Origin: an uncultured bacterium
GTDB lineage: Bacteria; Fermentibacterota; Fermentibacteria; Fermentibacterales; JCC-6
Assembly (NCBI GenBank): GCA_964607515.1
Contig: CAZSKU010000012.1
Span: 1,058 to 65,057 of the forward strand
Reading direction: 5' to 3'
Length of the DNA: 64,000 nucleotides
Shown here: piece after piece, positions 29,078-39,951 of the stretch
Numbering within the stretch: the stretch's first letter is position 1
How the letters are laid out: each line of letters starts with the position of its first letter
Position numbers and translations under genes: made by a program
Notes under the pieces: generated by a model
Databases searched by the model: none
What the model saw: the letters and a program-made list of their open reading frames with translations, nothing else
Told to the model about the DNA's origin: nothing

Positions 29078-30364
29078 ATGACAAGGACAACGCCCCTGCT
29101 TCTCCTGTTCCTGGCCGCTCTTGCTGCGGCCCAGACCGGAGAGACCCAGCCACCCCCCGCGGACTCCGGGGTCGTCGAGTCGGCCGCGGAACCCTTACCG
29201 GCGGAACCCGAACCGGTTCCCGCGGCTGAGATCGCCCCCCCGGGGGGAATACTGGTGACGGACTACCCGGACGACGCCGGCGACAGGCTCATGGTCTGTT
29301 TCGAGCCGGGCGCCGAAGCCGGCGATCCCGACCTCTTTGCGGCGTACCAGGTTTTCAGGAGACCCCTCGGGGCGCCTGACTCGGCCTGGGCCATGGTTAA
29401 CATGATCCCGGTGGGCGAGGGAACCAGCTTCATAGACGGCTTCGACCCGGACTTCCCCGTGGAGGAGGGTGCGCAGTACGAGTACCGGGTTGACGCACTC
29501 TACCTGGATCAGACCGTGGTTGCGGGGGAGGCCATTGCCGCCCAGGAGGTCGCATCCGGCCAGTGGTTCCACACCGGCAAAGTCAGGGTGCTGGTCGCCT
29601 GCGCCATATTCCTCGGCCTCATCTTCTACTTCTTCTCCCGGGCCAAGACCGGCGCCAGCATGTACCTTCGGCCGATCGCCGGCATCGAGGCCATTGACGA
29701 GGCCATCGGGCGGGCCACGGAAATGGGCAAGCCCATTCTTTACGTCCCGGGGCTTTCCTACATCGAAGACGTGGCAACCATCGCCAGTCTGACCATCCTG
29801 GGAAGGGTGGCCAGGAAGGTGGCGGAGTACCAGACTCCCCTGTGCGTACCCAACACGGACCCCATAGTCTTCACCGTGGCGGAGGAGGCGGTGAAGCAGG
29901 CGTACCTGGAGGCCGGCCGCCCCGACTCCTACGACCCTGACAGCGTGTTCTTCCTGACCCAGAGCCAGTTCGCCTTCGTGGCGGGGGTGAACGGGATCAT
30001 GATGCGCCAGAAGCCCGCCACCAACTTCTACCTGGGCATGTTCTGGGCTGAGAGCCTGATTCTTGCCGAGACGGGGTCCCTCTCCGGGGCGATCCAGATA
30101 GCCGGCACCGACGCGGTCACCCAGCTTCCCTTCTTCATCACCACCTGCGACTACACCCTGATCGGCGAGGAACTCTACGCCGCCAGCGCCTACCTCAGCC
30201 GGGAGCCCATGCAGATGGGCTCCATCAAGGGACTGGACGCGTGCAAGGCGATACTGATGGTCTTCATCACACTGGGCATCATTCTCGCCCTTGTGGATGT
30301 GGCTGCGGAAACCCAAACCCTGGCGTGGCTCAAAGACCTGGTAACGTCTCAGGTGATGGACTAG
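29078..30364 (+). CDS. uncharacterised membrane protein A1: signal peptide, Ig-like extracytoplasmic domain, TM, conserved ~180-aa core, C-terminal TM
   Basis: MTRTTPLLLLFLAALAAAQT signal peptide. An extracytoplasmic domain contains DGFDPDFP...YEYRVD. TM helix VLVACAIFLGLIFYFF. Conserved core YLRPIAGIEAIDEAIGRATEMGKPILYVPG...FFITTCDYTLIGEELYAASAYL. No family recognised. First gene of the coupled operon. Confidence 0.6.
   Translation: MTRTTPLLLLFLAALAAAQTGETQPPPADSGVVESAAEPLPAEPEPVPAAEIAPPGGILVTDYPDDAGDRLMVCFEPGAEAGDPDLFAAYQVFRRPLGAPDSAWAMVNMIPVGEGTSFIDGFDPDFPVEEGAQYEYRVDALYLDQTVVAGEAIAAQEVASGQWFHTGKVRVLVACAIFLGLIFYFFSRAKTGASMYLRPIAGIEAIDEAIGRATEMGKPILYVPGLSYIEDVATIASLTILGRVARKVAEYQTPLCVPNTDPIVFTVAEEAVKQAYLEAGRPDSYDPDSVFFLTQSQFAFVAGVNGIMMRQKPATNFYLGMFWAESLILAETGSLSGAIQIAGTDAVTQLPFFITTCDYTLIGEELYAASAYLSREPMQMGSIKGLDACKAILMVFITLGIILALVDVAAETQTLAWLKDLVTSQVMD
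29668..30196 (+). repeat. near-identical duplicated segment, copy 1 (inside A1); perfect-identity core about 29768..30195
   Basis: By direct comparison it matches 39258..39784. About 428 bp are 100% identical, with few-mismatch flanks. The coding sequence on either side is divergent. Confidence 0.8.
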
Positions 30365-30386: not shown

Positions 30387-31031
30387 GTGAAGAGAGCTGT
30401 TCCCCTCATGATAGTCCTGGTGGGCGGAGTACTGATGATTATCCAGTACTTCATTCCCCACCGGATATCCCAGGATATTTTCGACAACTACACCATCTGG
30501 ATCCCCATCATAGGAGCCTTCGCCCTGGTTCTGGGCGTTGGCAGCCTCACCAGGCTTCACGGCCACCGGGTGAGGAACCGGGCTCCCAACTGGCCCTACA
30601 GCCTGGCGGTGATCGTTCCGATCTACCTCATGCCCATATTCGCCCTGCTCCTTCCGACCTCGGTCGGAGGCGGCATGGAAGCCCCCAGCGTATTCAACTT
30701 CGCCTTCATGCACATACAGGTTCCCATCCAGTCCACCATGTTCAGCCTCTTGGCCTTCTACATCGCCAGCGCCGCTTTCCGGGCCTTCCGGGCCAAGAGC
30801 CTTCTAGCCACGGTGCTGCTGCTCACGGCGGTGATAGTGATGATGGGGCAGGTTCCCATCGGCGAGCTTCTGGGAAGCTGGTTCCCGAAGCTGGGCCTCT
30901 GGATAATCGACTTCCCCAACAACGCCGCCAAGAGGGCCATCGGTCTCGGGGTGGGATTCGGCATTCTGGCCACCCAGCTCAAGATCATTTTCGGCGTCGA
31001 GCGTAATTGGCTCGGCGGCGCCGGTGATTAG
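30387..31031 (+). CDS. uncharacterised polytopic membrane protein B (about 5-6 TM)
   Basis: The GTG start is preceded by GGAAGGAG. Multiple hydrophobic helices. No family recognised. Confidence 0.55.
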   Translation: MKRAVPLMIVLVGGVLMIIQYFIPHRISQDIFDNYTIWIPIIGAFALVLGVGSLTRLHGHRVRNRAPNWPYSLAVIVPIYLMPIFALLLPTSVGGGMEAPSVFNFAFMHIQVPIQSTMFSLLAFYIASAAFRAFRAKSLLATVLLLTAVIVMMGQVPIGELLGSWFPKLGLWIIDFPNNAAKRAIGLGVGFGILATQLKIIFGVERNWLGGAGD

Positions 31032-31042
31032 GGGGTGAAGAC

Positions 31043-32044
31043 ATGAAGGAAAACATCTGGAGCAGAATGCTCAACCTGGACAGGCGATGGATCTTCCTCT
31101 TCATAGGGGTCGTCTGCATCGTTCCGTTCTTCATTCCCTTCGGGCTGCCGCTGATACCCACCCAGCACGTCATTTCCATTTTCGACTACATCGAGGGGCT
31201 CGGCCCCGAGAACGCCATCTTCGTGAGTTTCGACTTCGACCCGGGCACGGACCCGGAGAACATGCCCATGGCGGTGGCCGTCACCAGGCACGCCTTCGCC
31301 AGGCATATCCCTGTGTTCTTCACCGCCAACGCCCCGCTGGCGCAGGGAATGCTGGAGTCGGGATTCGCCTACGTGACCAATCCTCACAGCGAAGACTACT
31401 TCCACGTGGTGACCTGGCCCGAGTGGGCCCCCTACCGGGAGATGGGCATCACCGAAAGGGACCAGCTGGAGGCCGCCTGGGAGGCTGACGGGAACGTGCT
31501 TCCTGCGAATGCCGCCGGATGGGTGTTCGAAGGACGTGATTTCGCCAAGCTGGGCTACCTCCCCTACTTCAGCCTCGTGATCCTGGGCATGACCTCCTCC
31601 ATCGCAGCCCAGTACCCGGAGGACATGAGCGGCAACCCCTTGGCGGAGATGCCCATGCTTCAGGAGCACAAGAGCCTCAGGGAAGTGGACCTTGCCACGA
31701 CCTTCGCCGGAAGCGCCGCCTGCATGTGGTGGGTCACCTACGCCCGTGAAAAGATCGGCCTTCCGGTGGCCTTCGGGGTCACTGCGGTCAGCGCCACCGA
31801 CTACACCATCTACATCCAGTCGGGCCAGCTGGTGGGCCAGATGGGCGGACTGCGGGGCGCCGCGGAGTACGAGGTTCTCCTGCAGCAGAAAGGCTACTTC
31901 GAGCAACCCGACAGAGCCTTCATCGGAATGGACGTCCAGAACGCGGCGCACCTGCTGATCTTCTTCTTCATCGTGCTTGGCAACATCGCCTACTTCGCCG
32001 GGGGTTTCCATAAAAAGGGCGCACTGCTGAAGGGAAGGAGGTAG
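31043..32044 (+). CDS. uncharacterised membrane-anchored protein C (N- and C-terminal TM helices flanking a soluble domain)
   Basis: RBS GGGGGTGAAG. N-terminal helix WIFLFIGVVCIVPFFIPFGLPLI and C-terminal helix LLIFFFIVLGNIAYFAGGF. Lies 11 bp after B. Confidence 0.55.
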   Translation: MKENIWSRMLNLDRRWIFLFIGVVCIVPFFIPFGLPLIPTQHVISIFDYIEGLGPENAIFVSFDFDPGTDPENMPMAVAVTRHAFARHIPVFFTANAPLAQGMLESGFAYVTNPHSEDYFHVVTWPEWAPYREMGITERDQLEAAWEADGNVLPANAAGWVFEGRDFAKLGYLPYFSLVILGMTSSIAAQYPEDMSGNPLAEMPMLQEHKSLREVDLATTFAGSAACMWWVTYAREKIGLPVAFGVTAVSATDYTIYIQSGQLVGQMGGLRGAAEYEVLLQQKGYFEQPDRAFIGMDVQNAAHLLIFFFIVLGNIAYFAGGFHKKGALLKGRR

Positions 32045-32047
32045 ACC

Positions 32048-32677
32048 GTGTACGAAACCATCGGAATCTGGGTAGCGGCCATCTTCACCCTGGCCATGTA
32101 CTCCTTCCTTTACAAGGAGAACCCCCTGTACCGCCTCGGTGAGCATCTGGTAGTCGGCATATCAACAGGGTACTTCATCGTTCTCACCTACACCCAGGTG
32201 TTGAAACCCAGGCTCATAGACGCCATCGCCCTGGAGAACCAGTGGATCCTGGTGATTCCGGCCCTGCTGGGTCTTCTGTACGTCACCCGGTTTTTCCCCA
32301 AGATCGCCTGGCTCTCCCGGTACCCCATGGCCTTCATCATGGGCACAAGCATGGGCGTGGGCTTCCCGCTGTCCATGAAGGCCAGCGTCCTGAGGCAGCT
32401 GGAAGCCACGATTCTGCCGTTGTACCAGGCGGGGATGCCCTGGCAGATCCTGGCGGGCAACATCATCCTGGTGTTCGGAACCCTGGCGGCTCTGATCTAC
32501 TTCTTCTTCAGCAAGCCCCACAGGGGTCTTTTCTTCGGAACCGGGTCCAAGATCGGGATCTGGGTCATCATGATCGGATTCGGAGCCACCTTCGGCTTCA
32601 CCGTCATGGGCCGGATCAGCCTGTTGATCGGAAGGGTGCAGTTCCTTCTGAAGGACTGGCTGGGTGTGATCAACTGA
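32048..32677 (+). CDS. uncharacterised polytopic membrane protein D (about 5-6 TM)
   Basis: The GTG start is 3 nt after the stop of C. Similar size and topology to B. Confidence 0.55.
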   Translation: MYETIGIWVAAIFTLAMYSFLYKENPLYRLGEHLVVGISTGYFIVLTYTQVLKPRLIDAIALENQWILVIPALLGLLYVTRFFPKIAWLSRYPMAFIMGTSMGVGFPLSMKASVLRQLEATILPLYQAGMPWQILAGNIILVFGTLAALIYFFFSKPHRGLFFGTGSKIGIWVIMIGFGATFGFTVMGRISLLIGRVQFLLKDWLGVIN

Positions 32678-32750
32678 CGGGAACGCCCCCGGTCCTTCCC
32701 GGGCCGGGGGCGCCCATCCTTCCAGAGTGTTCCGGGAGAGGGAGGCTGGC

Positions 32751-35498
32751 ATGAACGGCCTGATCCTGGTAACGGACATCGGAAGCACCACCACAAAGGC
32801 TCTTCTGCTGGATACCGCCGGGGGAATACTCACCCCGGTGGAGAGTTGCGAGGAGCCCACCACCGTGGAAAAACCCCACGAAGACGTGGCCGTCGGTCTG
32901 TTCCGGGCGGTGGACGGCTTGTCCCGCCTGTCCGGAGTGCAGCTGAGGGATGGCGGCCGGTTCCTGGTGCCGTTTTACGCCACCAGTTCAGCGGGAGGCG
33001 GTCTGCAGATACTGGTGATCGCCCTGGCATCCCGTGACACCGGAACAGTGGCAAGGGCGGTGACCTGCGGGGCCGGAGGGGTGGTGCTGGACGCTTTCAA
33101 CATCGACGATGATACCCCAAGAGTGGAGAAGATTCAGAGGATGGCGGGCCTCTCCCCCGACCTGGTGGTGCTGGCGGGAGGGTACGAGGACGGGGCCCTG
33201 GCCGCGGTGGTGAACATGGCCCAGTTGCTTGCCCAGGCAAGCCCCAAACCGAAATACCGGGCAGGAACCCTTCCGGTGGTGTTCTGCGGAAACTCGAAGG
33301 CGGGGGAGTTCGTCAGGGAAGCCCTCGGGGCTGGTTTCAGGCTTTACTGCACGGAGAACATCAGGCCCTCGGGGCTGGAACTCAATCTCAGACCCGCCGT
33401 ACAGATGGTCCAAAGACTCTTCATGGACCACGTGATGCAGATGGCGCCGGGCTACAGTTCCATAGCCGGAGCCGTGTCGGCTCCGATTGTCCCCACACCC
33501 TCGGGCGTGGAACGGATACTTTCCCTGTGGTGCCGGGAGACCGGCAAGTGTGCTCTGCTTGCGGATATGGGCGGGGCCACCACGGACGTGTTCACCGCGG
33601 TCGCCGGGGGGGTCGCGCGAACCGTGAGCGCCAACATCGGGATGAGTTACAGCCTGTCAAACATCCTCAGGGAGGCCGGTCTTCCGGGGATCATGAGGCA
33701 CCTGCCCGGGGTGGATCCTTCACCGGTGCGGGACCGGATACTGGAGAAGACCCTGTTTCCAACCCGGCCCCCCGGCGACGACTTCGGGCTTCGGGTGGAA
33801 CACTCCTGCGCCGCGGAAGGCATGGCCCTGGCCTGCCGGCAGCACCTGGAGTTCTCCTACCGACGGGCCAGGGTGGGTTTTCTCGATCGGCTCAAGCTTC
33901 TTGGAAGGTGCAAGTTCGATCAGAGGTTCAGAACCCTGGACGAGAAGGAAGGCTTCAGCCTGAGCGACTTCGGAACCCTGATCGGAGCCGGCGGCGTCCT
34001 GGCCCACGCCCCAGGGCGTAGGGCCGCCTGGATACTCGCCCAGGGATTCTTTCCCCGGGGAGTCACCACCCTGATGGTGGACAGCCCTTTTCACAGCCCC
34101 CACATGGGTGTGCTCAGCAGCTCCTTTCCCGAGATGGCCCTGGGCTACTACCGCAGCCACTGCCTGAAATCGGTCTGCCGGGTGGTCACCCCGACAGGCT
34201 CCCTCCGGCCTGGCAGGCCGGGGATCGGAGTAAGGGGCCCCCACGTCGAGACGATGGTCCTGGGCGGCGACTTCCTGTACCTGGAGGACGGGAAGGGAAC
34301 GTCCGCCGGAAACTGGCGGGAGACCGAGAGCATTCCGATGCTGGTTGACTGCAGGACGAACCCCGATCAGACACTTCCCGTGGATTTCGACAAGAGGCCG
34401 GCGGAGGTGCTCCCGGTGCCCGCCGCCCGTGAACGACAGGCGAGGTTCTCCGAGCCGGGAGAAATCCTGCACACCTTCTCCCTGCCCTATCCGGGAGAGA
34501 TACTGGTGGGCGCCGGAGATACCGTGGAGCCCGGAACCCTCCTGGGAAGGAACCCTCTCAGCCCTCCAATGGTCTACTTCCTGGACGTCAGGACATCGGG
34601 GGGCTATGACGACGCCACTCCCACCGGGGAAATCCTGGACGGGGTGCTGGTGGCTCCGGGAGACGTTGTGAACCCGGGAAAGCAGGTGTTCCGCAGGATT
34701 GTCAGGCACGGCCTCACCCGGGAGGTACACGAGTTGAAAAGCCCCGTCCGGGGCTTGGTGACCGGTATCGTCCCCCCCGGGCTTGTCTGCCTCAGGGAGA
34801 TACAGGACTACGACGGCAAGCCCCACGTGGTGGATGTGGCGGGACCCCTGGGGATAAAGCCAGGGCACATCCACAGATTCCTGAAGGTGAAGAAGGGCGA
34901 TTTCGTGCTTCAGGGGCAGGCTCTGGCGGCGGGGGAAAGGTTTCCGATGGTAAAGAGCCCGTCCGCTGGCACCATCACAGAGGTGGACAGGGAGTCGGGC
35001 ACCGTGACCGTGCACTACAGAACGGTTCCCGTGGACATGCGATCGCCCATCCACGGGGTTGTGTCGGGGGTTGTTCCGGAGCACTCCGTGACCCTGTCCT
35101 TCCGGGGAACAGTGATGGAGGGGGTGCTGGGGCTGGGAAGGGACACCTACGGCGTCTTCTCCACGGAGCCGGCCCCTGGAGCCCTGGTTCTCAGGATGGG
35201 AACGATGACTCCGGAGGATCTGAGGCGGGCCGTGGACTGCGGCGCGGCGGCGGTGGTATCTGCGGGGATTTCAGGGGAACTGGTGTCCGGCTACCTGGGG
35301 GAGGATCCCGGGGTGATACTCACCGGGGGCGAGGACCTCCCTGTATCCCTGATGGCCGTGTGCGGCGCGGGCTTGAGAAGGTTTTCCGGGGATATATGGA
35401 GGACTCTGGAGGGGCTGCCCGGCCGCCGGGGCGCTCTGTTCACAACCACCAGGATAAGGGCCGGGGTGGAGAGACCCAGGCTTTTCATGGAGGAATGA
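32751..35498 (+). CDS. large ASKHA-superfamily ATPase (GlmL/MutL/EutA-like N-terminal half) fused to a ~450-aa C-terminal region with repeated barrel-sandwich-hybrid-like hairpins
   Basis: The ATG is preceded by GGGAGG. LVTDIGSTTTKALLLD (phosphate-1) and LLADMGGATTDVFTAV (phosphate-2) are typical of GlmL-type actin-fold ATPases. The C-terminus has repeated GDxVxPGxxL-type motifs (GDTVEPGTLLG, GDVVNPGKQVF, KKGDFVLQGQAL). Confidence 0.65.
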   Translation: MNGLILVTDIGSTTTKALLLDTAGGILTPVESCEEPTTVEKPHEDVAVGLFRAVDGLSRLSGVQLRDGGRFLVPFYATSSAGGGLQILVIALASRDTGTVARAVTCGAGGVVLDAFNIDDDTPRVEKIQRMAGLSPDLVVLAGGYEDGALAAVVNMAQLLAQASPKPKYRAGTLPVVFCGNSKAGEFVREALGAGFRLYCTENIRPSGLELNLRPAVQMVQRLFMDHVMQMAPGYSSIAGAVSAPIVPTPSGVERILSLWCRETGKCALLADMGGATTDVFTAVAGGVARTVSANIGMSYSLSNILREAGLPGIMRHLPGVDPSPVRDRILEKTLFPTRPPGDDFGLRVEHSCAAEGMALACRQHLEFSYRRARVGFLDRLKLLGRCKFDQRFRTLDEKEGFSLSDFGTLIGAGGVLAHAPGRRAAWILAQGFFPRGVTTLMVDSPFHSPHMGVLSSSFPEMALGYYRSHCLKSVCRVVTPTGSLRPGRPGIGVRGPHVETMVLGGDFLYLEDGKGTSAGNWRETESIPMLVDCRTNPDQTLPVDFDKRPAEVLPVPAARERQARFSEPGEILHTFSLPYPGEILVGAGDTVEPGTLLGRNPLSPPMVYFLDVRTSGGYDDATPTGEILDGVLVAPGDVVNPGKQVFRRIVRHGLTREVHELKSPVRGLVTGIVPPGLVCLREIQDYDGKPHVVDVAGPLGIKPGHIHRFLKVKKGDFVLQGQALAAGERFPMVKSPSAGTITEVDRESGTVTVHYRTVPVDMRSPIHGVVSGVVPEHSVTLSFRGTVMEGVLGLGRDTYGVFSTEPAPGALVLRMGTMTPEDLRRAVDCGAAAVVSAGISGELVSGYLGEDPGVILTGGEDLPVSLMAVCGAGLRRFSGDIWRTLEGLPGRRGALFTTTRIRAGVERPRLFMEE

Positions 35499-35815
35499 TG
35501 AATCCAGAGGAGCTGATGGGTTGTTTTCCCGGAGTAGTCCTGGACTCCGGAAACCATGTTCTTTTCCGTGGATTGCGGATAGGCTCGCTGGAAACATCCG
35601 GCGGAACAGTTATCTTCAGGCTTCTGGTCCACCGGCTGGATTACGGGCCGCTGCTTTCGGAGTACCCCTTCCTGATTCCGTCCACTGAAGGCTTTGTAGA
35701 AGTGCTGCTGGGGGATACGCCCGGTGAGGAGGTTGTGTCGGCCCTGCTGGAGTGCATCAGGAGCTCCGTGGACCGTGCCGCCGAAACATCGGGAGAGAGT
35801 ATAATTGCGCAGTGA
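35495..35815 (+). CDS. small hypothetical protein (possibly roadblock/LC7-like), translationally coupled to the ATPase
   Basis: ATGA overlap with the upstream stop. 106 aa. The roadblock-like assignment is tentative. Confidence 0.4.
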
Positions 35816-35841
35816 AACCCGAAACCGCAGGGAGGTTTGAC

Positions 35842-35994
35842 ATGTGGGTTTGCCAGGCGTGCGGGTGGGTCTACGATCCCGCTCAGGGTGACCCGGACGG
35901 AGGAATCGCTCCGGGGACGGCGTTCGAGGATATCCCCGACGACTGGGTGTGCCCGGTCTGCGGCGTTGGCAAGGACATGTTCGAGAAGGAATGA
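35842..35994 (+). CDS. rubredoxin
   Basis: [12 protein letters not shown]...[16 protein letters not shown]: two CxxCG knuckles. RBS GGAGG. 50 aa. Confidence 0.85.
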
Positions 35995-36260
35995 GGATTC
36001 CAGTGAAAGAAACCATCGTTGCCATACTGGTATCCCACAGGAACCAGGCCGCTGTCAATGTTCAGAAGGTGCTGACCGGCTGGGGCTGCATGATCAAGAC
36101 AAGGCTCGGGATACACGAGGGCACCATGGAGGACTGCTCCGAGAGGGGGCTCATCATCCTGAGCCTGACAGGAGAGGAAGAGAAGAAAGAGGAACTGGTC
36201 AGGAAGCTCAACGCCCTGAGCGACGTAACCGCCAAGAGGGTGGACCTGGCGCTTGACTGA
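35991..36260 (+). CDS. small ACT-like protein (TM1266/TIGR03959-like)
   Basis: ATGA overlap with rubredoxin. [34 protein letters not shown]...[27 protein letters not shown] resembles TM1266-type ACT-fold proteins. Confidence 0.4.
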
Positions 36261-37035
36261 CCGGCTCGCCGGCGTTCTCGAGGATGTCTATTCCCGATGG
36301 AATCGCCGGGAGTTCGTGCATCCCGATCCTCTGGAGTTCCTCTACCCCTACGATGACCTCCCCGACCGGGAGATTGCCGGACTGGTGGCCTCGGGGCTGG
36401 CCTACGGCAGGGTGGCACAGATCCTCGGAAGCGTTGGCGCGGTGCTGGAAGCCCTGGGGACATCGCCTTCCTCTCTGCCCGAGAACCGGCTGGAAGGAAT
36501 ACTCGCCGGATTCAGACACCGGTTCACCCCGGACTCGGACCTGGTCCGGGCGATCCGCGGCGCCCTTCGCATTCAGAGGGAACACGGATCCCTCGGCGGA
36601 TTCGTCGCCCGGGCGGCCACGGAAGGCGGAATTCTGGAAGCCCAGCGGAGGCTCGTCGCCGGGATTCTCGGCGACGGGCCGCCCTCGAGCCTCCTCTCCT
36701 GCCCCACCCGGGGAAGCTGCTGCAAAAGGCTGAACCTCTGGTTCAGATGGATGGTCAGAAGTGATTCGGTGGATCCCGGGGGATGGGCAGGCATCCAGGC
36801 TTCCGAGCTGCTTGTTCCCCTGGACACCCACATGTGGAAGATCGGCAGAAGGCTGGGCTTCACCGGCCGGAACAGCCCGGACCTGAGGGCGGCCATGGAA
36901 ATCACCCGGGGTTTCGGAAGGGTGAATCCGGGAGATCCGGTGAAGTACGATTTCGCCCTGACAAGGTTCGGAATCAGGTCCGATCTCACCCTGGAATCGC
37001 TGTTCTCGGAGCTTGACCCGCCGGAAGGGTTATAG
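36253..37035 (+). CDS. TIGR02757/DUF2400-family protein (HhH-GPD-like)
   Basis: TTG start with an 8-nt overlap onto the upstream gene. Profile LEFLYPYDDLPDREIAGLVASGLAYGRVAQI...LVPLDTHMWKIGRRLG. Confidence 0.55.
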   Translation: MTDRLAGVLEDVYSRWNRREFVHPDPLEFLYPYDDLPDREIAGLVASGLAYGRVAQILGSVGAVLEALGTSPSSLPENRLEGILAGFRHRFTPDSDLVRAIRGALRIQREHGSLGGFVARAATEGGILEAQRRLVAGILGDGPPSSLLSCPTRGSCCKRLNLWFRWMVRSDSVDPGGWAGIQASELLVPLDTHMWKIGRRLGFTGRNSPDLRAAMEITRGFGRVNPGDPVKYDFALTRFGIRSDLTLESLFSELDPPEGL

Positions 37036-38737: not shown

Positions 38738-38766
38738 ATTATACCAGGCCTGGTGTGCTTCTCCAA
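38738..38766 (-). promoter_or_regulatory. candidate sigma70 promoter for selD (-35 TTGGAG, 17-nt spacer, -10 TATAAT)
   Basis: Read on the minus strand: TTGGAGaagcacaccaggcctggTATAAT. It lies about 25 nt upstream of the 38710 ATG. Confidence 0.4.
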
Positions 38767-38796
38767 TTCCGGGGACGGTCGCGAAAGGGCGGTCAC

Positions 38797-39951
38797 ATGG
38801 TTCACCTGCTCATGCCGGGGGTACTCTGCCTGATGGTTCCGGAAATAGCGTCGGTAACCGATGTTCCCAACGACGCCGGCGAATTGCTGATGGTGGAGGT
38901 GTCGTTTCCCTCAGGGGTCGAGGAGGTCGGCGGTTTCCTCCTCTGGCGCACACCCGCCGACCTGGACGCCTGGGAGCTGGTGATGGTGGAGGCTCTCCCG
39001 CTGGAGTCCAACCTGCTGATGGACGGTTTCGATCCGGACTATCCCCTGGTTCCCGGAACCCGGTACCTGTACCGTCCCGGATTGATCACCCTTCAGGGGG
39101 ACACCCTCCCCGGCCCGGTCTTCACTGGCGCCGAAGCTCCCTCGGGGTCATGGTTCAACACCGGCGAGACGCCCACCCTGGCGGCCTGCCTGATTTTCAT
39201 GGCGCTGATCTTCTACTACTTCCAGAGAGCCCTCAAGGGCGCGGAGTTCTACCTCCGGCCGATCGCCGGCATCGAGGCCATTGACGAAGCCATCGGACGG
39301 GCCACGGAAATGGGCAAGCCCATTCTTTACGTCCCGGGGCTTTCCACCATAGACGACGTGGCAACCATCGCCAGTCTGACCATCCTGGGAAGGGTGGCCA
39401 GGAAGGTGGCGGAGTACCAGACTCCCCTGTGCGTACCCAACACGGACCCCATAGTCTTCACCGTGGCGGAGGAGGCGGTGAAGCAGGCGTACCTGGAGGC
39501 CGGCCGCCCCGACTCCTACGACCCTGACAGCGTGTTCTTCCTGACCCAGAGCCAGTTCGCCTTCGTGGCGGGGGTGAACGGGATCATGATGCGCCAGAAG
39601 CCCGCCACCAACTTCTACCTGGGCATGTTCTGGGCTGAGAGCCTGATTCTTGCCGAGACGGGGTCCCTCTCCGGGGCGATCCAGATAGCCGGCACCGACG
39701 CGGTCACCCAGCTTCCCTTCTTCATCACCACCTGCGACTACACCCTGATCGGCGAGGAACTCTACGCCGCCAGCGCCTACCTGGGGCGGGAGCCCAGGCA
39801 GATGGGGGGTATAAAAAGCCTTGACGCATGCAAGGTCATCATCATGACCCTTATAGTTTTGGGAGTAATCGCATTCCTGGCGGATTTCCTGGCCGGAACG
39901 GATTTCCTTCCGCGGATCAGGGGCTGGATCACCACCCCCGAGGGCTTCTGA
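38797..39951 (+). CDS. uncharacterised membrane protein A2, orphan paralog of A1
   Basis: Same architecture as A1: N-terminal hydrophobic leader, Ig-like domain with DGFDPDYP, a TM helix, a core essentially identical to A1, and a divergent C-terminal TM tail. RBS GCGAAAGGGCGG resembles the A1 RBS GCGAAAGGCGGG. Confidence 0.6.
   Translation: MVHLLMPGVLCLMVPEIASVTDVPNDAGELLMVEVSFPSGVEEVGGFLLWRTPADLDAWELVMVEALPLESNLLMDGFDPDYPLVPGTRYLYRPGLITLQGDTLPGPVFTGAEAPSGSWFNTGETPTLAACLIFMALIFYYFQRALKGAEFYLRPIAGIEAIDEAIGRATEMGKPILYVPGLSTIDDVATIASLTILGRVARKVAEYQTPLCVPNTDPIVFTVAEEAVKQAYLEAGRPDSYDPDSVFFLTQSQFAFVAGVNGIMMRQKPATNFYLGMFWAESLILAETGSLSGAIQIAGTDAVTQLPFFITTCDYTLIGEELYAASAYLGREPRQMGGIKSLDACKVIIMTLIVLGVIAFLADFLAGTDFLPRIRGWITTPEGF
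39258..39784 (+). repeat. near-identical duplicated segment, copy 2 (inside A2)
   Basis: See copy 1 at 29668..30196. Confidence 0.8.

Follow-up and report, generated by a model that had tools for sequence, protein, structure and literature searches.

An ASKHA ATPase joined to tandem BSH and swivelling domains, encoded beside conserved membrane genes: a putative ATP-driven subunit of an undescribed membrane complex

Introduction

GlmL/MutL proteins (PF13941; NF040745, TIGR01319) are the closest described relatives of the protein reported here, the product of gene E in an uncultured Fermentibacteria genome. GlmL is a single-domain protein of ~460 aa encoded beside B12 mutase genes (glmS/glmE, ornithine/lysine aminomutase), and to our knowledge its mechanism is itself unproven. 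The N-terminal 467 aa of E match the Pfam family end to end and carry the same ASKHA phosphate-1, phosphate-2 and adenosine motifs. However, E is 915 aa long, twice the length of GlmL, and its gene lies beside membrane genes. Annotation pipelines call E-type proteins "glutamate mutase L", a name that the evidence argues against and that is probably misleading.

Other described proteins resemble E in their folds. The large subunit of diol/glycerol dehydratase reactivase (DdrA/GdrA; PDB 2d0o_A) has no detectable sequence relation to E; its swivel domain is inserted in the ATPase, whereas that of E is C-terminal and follows a BSH array, and it works with a DdrB partner and a dehydratase, neither of which accompanies E. 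RnfC and NqrA have N-terminal BSH domains (PDB 8ahx_C, 8a1u_A; PF13375, PF05896), and repeated hybrid motifs stand in series in the tandem SBHM arrays of RNAP beta' SI3 and NusG domain II (PDB 8emb, 2xhc). The BSH fold is also common to E and the biotinyl/lipoyl carriers, but the conserved modifiable Lys of the latter (MKM or DKA) is not found in E. The periplasmic membrane-fusion proteins HlyD and AcrA carry a coiled-coil hairpin that separates their BSH halves and, in addition, a signal peptide or TM anchor; E has none of these. Finally, the swivelling beta/beta/alpha fold is that of the phospho-His domain of PTS Enzyme I, PPDK and PEP synthase (2wqd_A, 1vbg_A, 5hv1_A). We know of no ASKHA ATPase that serves as the power source of a membrane transporter.

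Here we describe gene E and its surroundings in the window, by which we mean the whole stretch of 64,000 nucleotides analysed. The comparison brought to light a conserved six- to eight-gene cluster in which no membrane component has a known relative and the one enzyme that can be recognised, an ASKHA ATPase, is combined with beta domains resembling those of carriers.

Results and discussion

Gene E and its ATPase half

Gene E (32751..35498, + strand) translates without a stop into 915 aa, a fused ASKHA-BSH-swivel protein. Direct reading of the sequence placed a Shine-Dalgarno GGAGG (32741..32745, +) 5 nt upstream of the ATG, and for this reason the ATG at 32751 was preferred over the GTG at 32727. 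Public data contain a 915-aa protein, P0001, that is 100% identical to E, and homologues align over the full length with 34-86% identity (30-48% among genome loci). Because such full-length homologues exist, E is a gene maintained by selection rather than a random ORF in a genome with 63% GC. E is a real cytoplasmic protein, and no TM segment is predicted in it. A 97-aa ORF overlapping its stop codon is kept in close relatives only.

The ASKHA ATPase domain of the Pfam MutL/GlmL family covers residues 5-467 (32763..34151, +; PF13941, E=8.6e-73), the match spanning profile positions 1-446 of 450 at 246 bits vs a gathering cut-off of 27. A previous sequence-only reading had recognised in this half the phosphate-1 motif DIGSTTTK and the phosphate-2 motif DMGGATTDV, spaced as is typical of GlmL/MutL. 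Both were located (DIGSTTTK at residue 9, DMGGATTD at 272), together with TSSAGGG at 78 and GAGG at 412, and the spacing is that of the MutL family because almost the whole Pfam profile is matched. D9, G11, S12, T13, T15 and K16 are invariant in 34 homologues, as are TSSAGGGLQ at 78-86, D272, G274-D279 and G414-G415. The features expected of the ASKHA superfamily, namely phosphate-1 (DxGxT), phosphate-2 (DxGGxTTD) and adenosine (GxGG) motifs, are all conserved; the nucleotide-binding motifs are complete and intact, and ATP hydrolysis is predicted from them. The ATPase is followed by a small beta domain (residues ~477-533; 34179..34349, +), whose strands were modelled by AF2 with pLDDT 83-91 and whose D533 is invariant in the 34 homologues.

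The strong Pfam MutL match, with GlmL and ornithine Or-4 protein as the best NCBIfam matches, would agree with E being a genuine GlmL, that is, an accessory or reactivating protein of B12-dependent glutamate (methylaspartate) mutase. The NCBIfam scores of E are, however, far below the cut-offs: 134 vs 475 (133.9 for the GlmL equivalog NF040745), 132 vs 600, and 86 vs 204 (86.4 for the glmL_fam subfamily TIGR01319). The ATPase encoded as a separate gene in other genomes, E_N, stays below them as well (231 vs 475 and 162 vs 204). Besides the doubled length of E, there was no glmS/glmE or mutase among the scanned neighbours of the window cluster (22-44 kb), and no mutase family among the conserved neighbours in the 87 genome loci described below. 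We regard a genuine GlmL as extremely improbable.

The C-terminal half

A disordered linker (residues 541-557; 34371..34421, +; pLDDT <50) separates the two halves. The match of stand-alone E_C proteins to E begins just past it, and the E_N and E_C parts were probably joined here. Beyond it lie a tandem BSH/SBHM array (residues ~570-806; 34458..35168, +), with hairpins at 589, 637 and 716 and an EIQDY motif at 683, and a C-terminal swivelling beta/beta/alpha domain (residues ~812-915; 35184..35495, +). The AF2 model of the C-terminal half has a pLDDT of 83.9 and contains no long helices. The earlier description of a ~450-aa hairpin region holds for the BSH-type hairpins but not for the last ~100 aa, which form the swivel domain. 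At least three GDxVxPGxxL-type hairpins had been claimed, and three matches to G[DE]xVxxGxx[LIVF] were found against 0.03 expected in 5000 shuffles of the C-terminal half. The likeness to biotinyl/lipoyl or HlyD-type motifs was also borne out, by weak Pfam matches to Biotin_lipoyl, RnfC_N and NqrA_N and by fold matches to BCCP, membrane-fusion proteins, RnfC, NqrA and the tandem hybrid motifs of RNAP SI3.

These likenesses are those of fold. In Foldseek, the middle region matches tandem SBHM arrays best (E=8e-6 to 1e-3); the proteins that contain them are unrelated to E and resemble it in fold and repeat arrangement only. The rmsd of RnfC/NqrA on E is large (13.7-29.6 Angstrom), so that only individual domains superpose. 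Unlike Rnf/Nqr, E has no Fe-S, FMN or NADH domain and no conserved Cys or Cys clusters, and no Rnf/Nqr family of Pfam or NCBIfam was matched by the products of the neighbouring genes A-D. A motif scan of E found neither Walker A nor CxxC, in agreement with the claimed lack of cysteine clusters and Walker motifs.

Conserved positions common to fused and split forms in the BSH array are L578, G582, G740, G750, G769, G796 and G801. Most of the universally conserved residues of the C-terminal half are in the swivel domain (T858-G859-x-E861, G872-x-G874 and T900-x-x-R903-A-G-x-x-R908-P909). Where the phospho-His domains have their acceptor His (GGxTSH), absent in E, E conserves TGxE, GxG and TxxRAGxxRP; moreover, it lacks the PEP-binding or nucleotide-binding partner domain of the PEP-utilising enzymes and gives no PEP-utiliser Pfam matches.

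One possible interpretation of these folds is that E_C is a modified swinging-arm carrier (lipoyl, biotinyl or phospho) and E a metabolic enzyme. Fold matches of the BSH part include BCCP and lipoyl domains, and those of the last domain include phospho-His swivel domains; in one split-type E_C, Biotin_lipoyl and RnfC_N exceed the Pfam gathering scores, and in 10 loci of 4 phyla the cluster is directly flanked by a gene for an LplA/LipB-family ligase. However, the C-terminal half has no conserved Lys, His or Cys (for His, residues 565-915 of 34 fused and split sequences), and for this reason E is not a biotin, lipoyl or phospho-His carrier of the described kind. The hairpin Lys of the split forms occurs in only ~60-70% of sequences, at non-canonical spacing, and is replaced by T or R in two LplA-linked loci; the segment with this candidate Lys is missing from the window protein. 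No carboxyltransferase, biotin carboxylase, E1/E3 or PEP-binding domain was found linked to E. The test proposed in the sequence-only reading, alignment of the C-terminal half to an enzyme domain with conserved catalytic residues, returned carrier and swivel folds and no conserved catalytic Lys or His, and so did not refute that reading. We consider a metabolic carrier enzyme very unlikely.

Fused and split forms

The C-terminal half matched 1612 representatives of 50%-identity clusters at E<=1e-10, and stand-alone and fused forms are both abundant. The fused form belongs to the group of Fermentibacteria, Cloacimonadota and Zixibacteria; elsewhere there are two adjacent genes, E_N (~600 aa, MutL plus ~130 aa that include the small beta domain) and E_C (~375 aa). 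We collected 87 genome loci of E homologues, found with full-length alignment: E_N and E_C are separate in 45 and fused in 33. The partner E_C gene was always present when E_N was split, and 40 of the 45 split loci have the two genes adjacent on the same strand. In 5 split loci of Latescibacterota, Opp genes lie between them. In a neighbour-joining tree the fused forms make up one clade, four sequences excepted. E is a lineage-specific fusion of two neighbouring genes, E_N and E_C. The fusion had been called unusual; it is not rare but a common joining of two adjacent genes in certain lineages. The statement that no characterised protein has this architecture stands: E has no sequence relatives in the PDB, and literature searches on DUF6754, PF13941, GlmL with glutamate mutase and 'glutamate mutase L' yielded nothing relevant.

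Some homologues carry additional N-terminal parts, which bear on whether E is a sensor or regulator in which the ASKHA domain binds a ligand or nucleotide and the protein signals the condition of a membrane partner to gene expression, on the model of HTH-ASKHA (ROK/Mlc-type) regulators. An N-terminal HTH_3/XRE domain is present in ~7/120 best homologues (P0075, P0082, P0088, P0092, P0095, P0097 and P0098), and one Cloacimonadota form (P0099) has a Cys-rich N-terminal extension. But DNA-binding domains are absent from the window protein and from most of its homologues, and the invariant catalytic-type phosphate-1 and phosphate-2 motifs fit turnover better than ligand sensing alone. We consider a sensor unlikely.

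Membrane genes linked to E

Four membrane genes precede E on the + strand of the window, with gaps of 22, 11, 3 and 73 nt along A-B-C-D-E. Gene A (29078..30364, 428 aa) encodes a signal peptide, an ectodomain with Fn3/titin matches, a TM segment (169-187), DUF6754 (PF20539, E=1.6e-116) and a second TM segment (391-409). Genes B (30387..31031, 214 aa) and D (32048..32677, 209 aa) encode polytopic membrane proteins of no family, and gene C (31043..32044, 333 aa), likewise of no family, has an N-terminal TM, a hydrophilic domain of ~250 aa and a C-terminal TM. Profile searches of the PDB with A, B, C and D returned only Fn3 in the A ectodomain. Terminator-like and promoter-like sites in the operon region were not enriched vs shuffled sequence. 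The idea that B and D are a pseudo-symmetric pair was dropped, since they are not detectably homologous (hhalign probability 0.7%, BLAST E=0.17). A second DUF6754 paralogue, A2 (38755..39951, +), differs from A in its ectodomain and is nearly identical in its cytoplasmic domain; conservation of DUF6754 is extreme, reaching 62% identity between phyla.

The full A-B-C-D set lies within 10 kb of E in 29/87 loci, and 4 further loci have partial sets broken off at a contig or locus end. Gene A is linked to E across phyla, and B adjoins A, C and D in 31 loci. The linkage spans at least 13 phylum-level lineages, mostly of uncultured bacteria: Fermentibacteria, Cloacimonadota, Eisenbacteria, Latescibacterota, Elusimicrobia, Gemmatimonadota, Marinimicrobia, WOR-3, Fibrobacteraceae, Nitrospiraceae, Dormibacterota, Armatimonadota and Bacillota. 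Split-type genomes have two further small membrane proteins, F and G, which were searched for and not found in the window. When all ORFs of the 87 loci were clustered, A-D, F and G were the only widely conserved neighbours. None of A-E, F, G or E_C matched PADLOC, and an anti-phage defence system was discarded as a candidate. A check of whether orthologs co-occur with B and D had been suggested: co-occurrence is frequent in the 87 loci, but adjacency is not universal, A-D being absent from the flanks in 30/33 fused and 19/45 split loci (some on short contigs). In archaea, the E_N/E_C pairs are accompanied by a Peptidase_M55 D-aminopeptidase and an Orn/DAP decarboxylase, and A-D are missing from the vicinity; evidently, neighbouring A-D genes are not required for the E module to function, or at any rate to be encoded.

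Such loci could also mean that E works in solution, either as an ATP-dependent chaperone or reactivase or as an enzyme whose target is a cytosolic client or a small molecule, and that the membrane and Opp genes share only a pathway or regulation with it, e.g., substrate uptake. The analogues would be DdrA (ASKHA plus swivel) or the ATP-dependent amide activation of hydantoinase/oxoprolinase type. Consistent with this, many loci lack nearby A-D, the archaeal ones with peptidase and decarboxylase included, Opp genes are adjacent, characterised GlmL relatives accompany amino-acid mutases (by NCBIfam names), and Pfam Hydantoinase_A matches E weakly (14.5 bits vs gathering 22.9). On the other hand, ORF clustering of the 87 loci gave no conserved soluble partner gene, neither a HyuB-like gene (Hydantoinase_B, HyuB/OplB) nor a DdrB-like gene was found among the neighbours, and no catalytic residues could be assigned in E_C. 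A soluble role is somewhat unlikely.

Proposed role of E

Because the E parts adjoin four membrane genes in at least 13 lineages, E probably belongs to an undescribed membrane-associated system and not to glutamate mutase. That it is the ATP-driven cytoplasmic subunit of an undescribed membrane complex has, in our estimate, close to an even chance. E would be the peripheral subunit of a complex built from A-D (plus F and G in split-type genomes). The actin-fold domain would close upon ATP binding and hydrolysis, and the movement may reach the swivel domain by way of the small beta domain and the BSH arm. The swivel domain would dock on a partner in the cytoplasm, for which the DUF6754 domain of A is the most plausible candidate, and the complex would thereby be gated, energised or remodelled; this choice of partner is a guess, because the predicted DUF6754 structure is poor (pLDDT 58).

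Opp-type peptide importer genes are often interleaved with or adjacent to the E / A-D clusters, nested in or flanking them in at least 5 phyla. Since importer genes of Opp/Dpp type recur in this way, the system is suggested to act on or with imported peptide-like substrates. The Opp association could also be co-regulation only. A wider reading, possible but doubtful as a whole, is that E_N/E_C and A-D (with F and G in split forms) are a new class of membrane machine, driven by an ASKHA rather than a P-loop ATPase and functionally coupled to Opp-type peptide uptake, which would transmit force through the BSH arm and swivel domain and be widespread in uncultured phyla. Should E indeed drive the membrane complex, a membrane process would be coupled to ATP in a new way. 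A sizeable set of genes listed as "hypothetical" in uncultured phyla would then become testable, because DUF6754 and D each have >7000 homologues; among the matches of D listed, every name is 'hypothetical protein'.

The arrangement of the cluster is variable, A-B-C-D-E in the window and E-A-B-C-D elsewhere. One Cloacimonadota contig encodes both E and A-B-C-D-A', 860 kb apart.

ATPase half of E

E, the fused protein under study, is encoded by a stop-free reading frame of 915 aa (32751-35498, + strand), and GGAGG was read from the sequence ahead of its ATG at 32751 (32741-32745, + strand). A 915-aa protein in public assemblies (P0001) is identical to E. The closest named relatives of E are those of Candidatus Fermentibacteraceae (65% identity), so that the window can be assigned to an uncultured Fermentibacteria genome, with a GC content of 60-68%. 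No transmembrane (TM) segment was predicted in E.

The Pfam MutL profile (PF13941) matched residues 5-467 over its whole length (E=8.6e-73). The two phosphate motifs claimed in the sequence-only reading were located at residues 9 (DIGSTTTK) and 272 (DMGGATTD). Alignment of 34 homologues, down to 34% identity, showed no variation in the ASKHA phosphate-1, connect, phosphate-2 and adenosine motifs, so that the N-terminal half, as judged from sequence, very probably functions as a nucleotide-binding module. E can scarcely be a true GlmL, as it scored below the NCBIfam cut-offs for the GlmL equivalog (134 bits vs 475), the ornithine Or-4 protein (132 vs 600) and the glmL_fam subfamily (86 vs 204), and clustering of all ORFs of 87 loci revealed no conserved B12-mutase, HyuB-like or DdrB-like partner. 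No sequence-related solved structure was found for E, and our literature search found neither a characterised protein with its architecture nor any mention of DUF6754 or PF13941. E is best classed with the MutL/GlmL-type ASKHA ATPases without being called a GlmL.

C-terminal half of E

At least three hairpins had been claimed for the C-terminal half, and the pattern G[DE]xVxxGxx[LIVF] indeed occurs at residues 589, 637 and 716, where shuffled sequences are expected to give 0.03 matches; as had also been claimed, E contains no Walker A motif and no CxxC. Weak Pfam matches to barrel-sandwich hybrid (BSH) families (RnfC_N, NqrA_N, Biotin_lipoyl) lie near residues 710-752, and the matches to PDB sequences were lipoyl, BCCP and NqrA proteins, all weak (E>0.005). 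Modelled with AF2 from 25 sequences, residues 462-915 gave a mean pLDDT of 83.9 and were predicted to form a small beta domain (~477-533), a disordered linker (541-557), a mostly-beta region (~570-806) and an alpha/beta domain (~812-915); at a pTM of 0.58, how these domains are placed relative to one another is uncertain. The proposed repeated-hairpin, BSH-like fold thus suits the middle region of the model, but the last ~100 residues are predicted to adopt a different fold. This last, swivel domain carries most of the strictly conserved residues of the C-terminal half: among 34 bacterial and archaeal sequences of both forms, fused and split, T858-G859-x-E861, G872-x-G874 and T900-x-x-R903-A-G-x-x-R908-P909 are kept in 33 or all 34.

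The C-terminal half of these 34 sequences shares no conserved Lys, His or Cys, and no known enzyme domain with its catalytic residues kept, which the sequence-only reading had named as the sign of a metabolic enzyme, was found there. Without its defining residue, neither the biotinyl/lipoyl-carrier reading nor the phospho-His one holds, and it is quite improbable that E is a modified swinging-arm carrier. A gene for an LplA/LipB-family (biotin/lipoate) ligase does abut the cluster at 10 loci in four phyla (L034 16151-17086; L046 6551-7663; L060 19675-20418; L074 12052-12945; L066 8429-9265; other Latescibacterota loci). A candidate hairpin Lys, the possible ligase target, is 60-70% conserved and is T or R in two ligase-linked loci, and E of the window does not have this hairpin segment.

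Fused and split forms

Among 50%-identity cluster representatives, the C-half profile matched 2530 proteins at E<=1e-3, 1612 at E<=1e-10 and 442 at E<=1e-30, including both fused proteins of ~920-1050 aa and stand-alone proteins of ~360-460 aa that start directly past the linker. We compared 87 loci, 80 taken at one genome per species and 7 from look-ups. E is fused in 33. In 45 it is split between two genes, one for E_N, ~600 aa long and made up of MutL and the small beta domain, and one for E_C, of ~375 aa; seven loci have the N-half only and two were unclassifiable. In 40 of the 45 split loci E_C is the next same-strand gene after E_N, and in the other five, all Latescibacterota, genes of a peptide-type ABC importer (Opp/Dpp) sit between them. 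The fusion in E is a common joining of two genes. Fused forms were seen in Fermentibacteria, Cloacimonadota, Zixibacteria, Delongbacteria, Mcinerneyibacterium and a few unnamed lineages, and all except four fall in a single clade of a neighbour-joining tree of the ATPase domain, which suggests that the two genes fused once or twice, with their junction in the disordered linker.

Some fused homologues of ~1020 aa (P0075, P0082, P0088, P0092, P0095, P0097, P0098; e.g. L003 8001-11069) carry an extra N-terminal DNA-binding domain of the HTH_3/XRE kind. Such variants would fit E being a sensor or regulator, which we nevertheless regard as improbable. One Cloacimonadota form (P0099, L007 8001-11174) has a Cys-rich, zinc-ribbon-like N-terminal extension, and Bacillota (Fermentithermobacillaceae, Clostridiales MAGs) have two E_N/E_C pairs per locus (L036, L043, L055, L056, L083).

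Membrane genes linked to E

Four membrane-protein genes, A-B-C-D, lie directly upstream of E, with successive gaps of 22, 11, 3 and 73 nt. A (29078-30364) encodes 428 aa with a signal peptide, an Fn3-like ectodomain, a TM segment, DUF6754 and a second TM segment; B (214 aa) and D (209 aa) are polytopic, and C (333 aa) has a ~250-aa hydrophilic domain between two TM segments. No relatives of B, C or D were found in Pfam, NCBIfam or PDB, and the source names listed for their homologues are all "hypothetical protein".

Co-occurrence of E with the membrane genes, a point raised by the sequence-only reading, held in part. In 29 of the 87 loci A-B-C-D, with internal order kept, are found no more than 10 kb from E, and in four others a partial set is truncated by the end of the contig or locus; these loci represent at least 13 phylum-level lineages. 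Adjacency is not universal, since 30 of the 33 fused loci, mostly Cloacimonadota, do not have A-D nearby. On one 2.2-Mb Cloacimonadota contig, E is at 0.49 Mb and A-B-C-D-A', where A' is a second A-type gene (L088), at 1.35 Mb, and for several E proteins the longest contig is exactly as long as that listed for A, C or D proteins; both observations suggest co-occurrence at the genome level. The usual order elsewhere is E_N-E_C-A-B-C-D, and that of the window A-B-C-D-E; such variable order with constant gene content argues for functional coupling of E and A-D rather than mere inherited synteny. That E is instead soluble, a chaperone or an enzyme sharing no more than its regulation with the membrane genes, seems somewhat unlikely.

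Two further small membrane proteins, both without a family, are encoded in split-type clusters upstream of E_N (L034-L087, e.g. L045 9258-9990): F (~115 aa, 36 loci), with the motif E..RPL.FLGSQ, and G (~140 aa, 19 loci), with two TM segments and a soluble domain. Neither was found in the window. No counterpart of this six- to eight-gene system is described in the literature searched.

A second DUF6754 paralogue lies at 38755-39951. The cytoplasmic DUF6754 domains of the two window paralogues are nearly identical as protein over ~180 aa, a 300-nt repeat inside them is only 88% identical as DNA, and the Fn3-like ectodomains have diverged. These comparisons point to an inner domain under very strong purifying selection and to interchangeable outer domains.

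A possible working of E

We tentatively favour, at somewhat under even probability, the reading that A-D would form a membrane complex and that E would be its peripheral subunit, driven by ATP. In E an intact actin-fold nucleotide-binding domain is followed by a beta-rich arm and then by a swivel domain that is conserved, E_N and E_C are obligatorily paired as adjacent or fused genes, and linkage to A-D is frequent and operonic. The ASKHA domain would close in a nucleotide-dependent manner, and the BSH array would relay this movement to the swivel domain; there, conserved Thr, Glu and Arg residues would form the surface that docks on a cytoplasmic partner. As that partner, the best candidate would be DUF6754 of A, with its 62% identity between phyla and its near-identity in the window paralogues. 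Functional analogies, not family membership, may be drawn to DdrA, in which an ASKHA and a swivel domain perform ATP-driven subunit exchange, to RnfC/NqrA, whose BSH domain is seated on small polytopic subunits, and to Hsp70, whose ASKHA domain drives a beta-sandwich domain.

Other neighbours

In at least five phyla, Opp/Dpp-type genes (SBP_bac_5, two permeases, ABC ATPases) lie inside the cluster or directly beside it (e.g. L067 1325-13022; L062 9950-20853; L046 249-12686; L084 9980-20595). Their arrangements differ: Marinimicrobia have SBP-OppB-OppC-E_N-E_C-F-A-B-C-D-ATPase, Latescibacterota place SBP and permeases between E_N and E_C, and Eisenbacteria have them downstream of D. This recurrence suggests that the role of the system has to do with peptide-like substrates taken up by the cell.

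Elusimicrobia-type clusters carry a glycosyltransferase gene (GT-C, PMT_2/ArnT-like) inserted after E_C (L050 12912-16504; L058 13103-15313; L084 13072-15294); L050 also has an inserted B12-binding radical SAM gene, and in L050 and L058 the insertions lie between E_C and A. The archaeal E_N/E_C pairs (Methanomethylicia, Culexarchaeum; L048 9944-15157, L061 8884-14434), with no A-D within 10 kb, are followed by genes for a Peptidase_M55 D-aminopeptidase and an Orn/DAP/Arg decarboxylase.

In the window, the region 3' of E (35498-36260) begins with a ~97-aa ORF, conserved in close relatives only, whose start overlaps the stop codon of E. Further downstream are a rubredoxin gene (35842-35994), an 85-aa ORF (36003-36260) and a DUF2400 gene (36253-37035).
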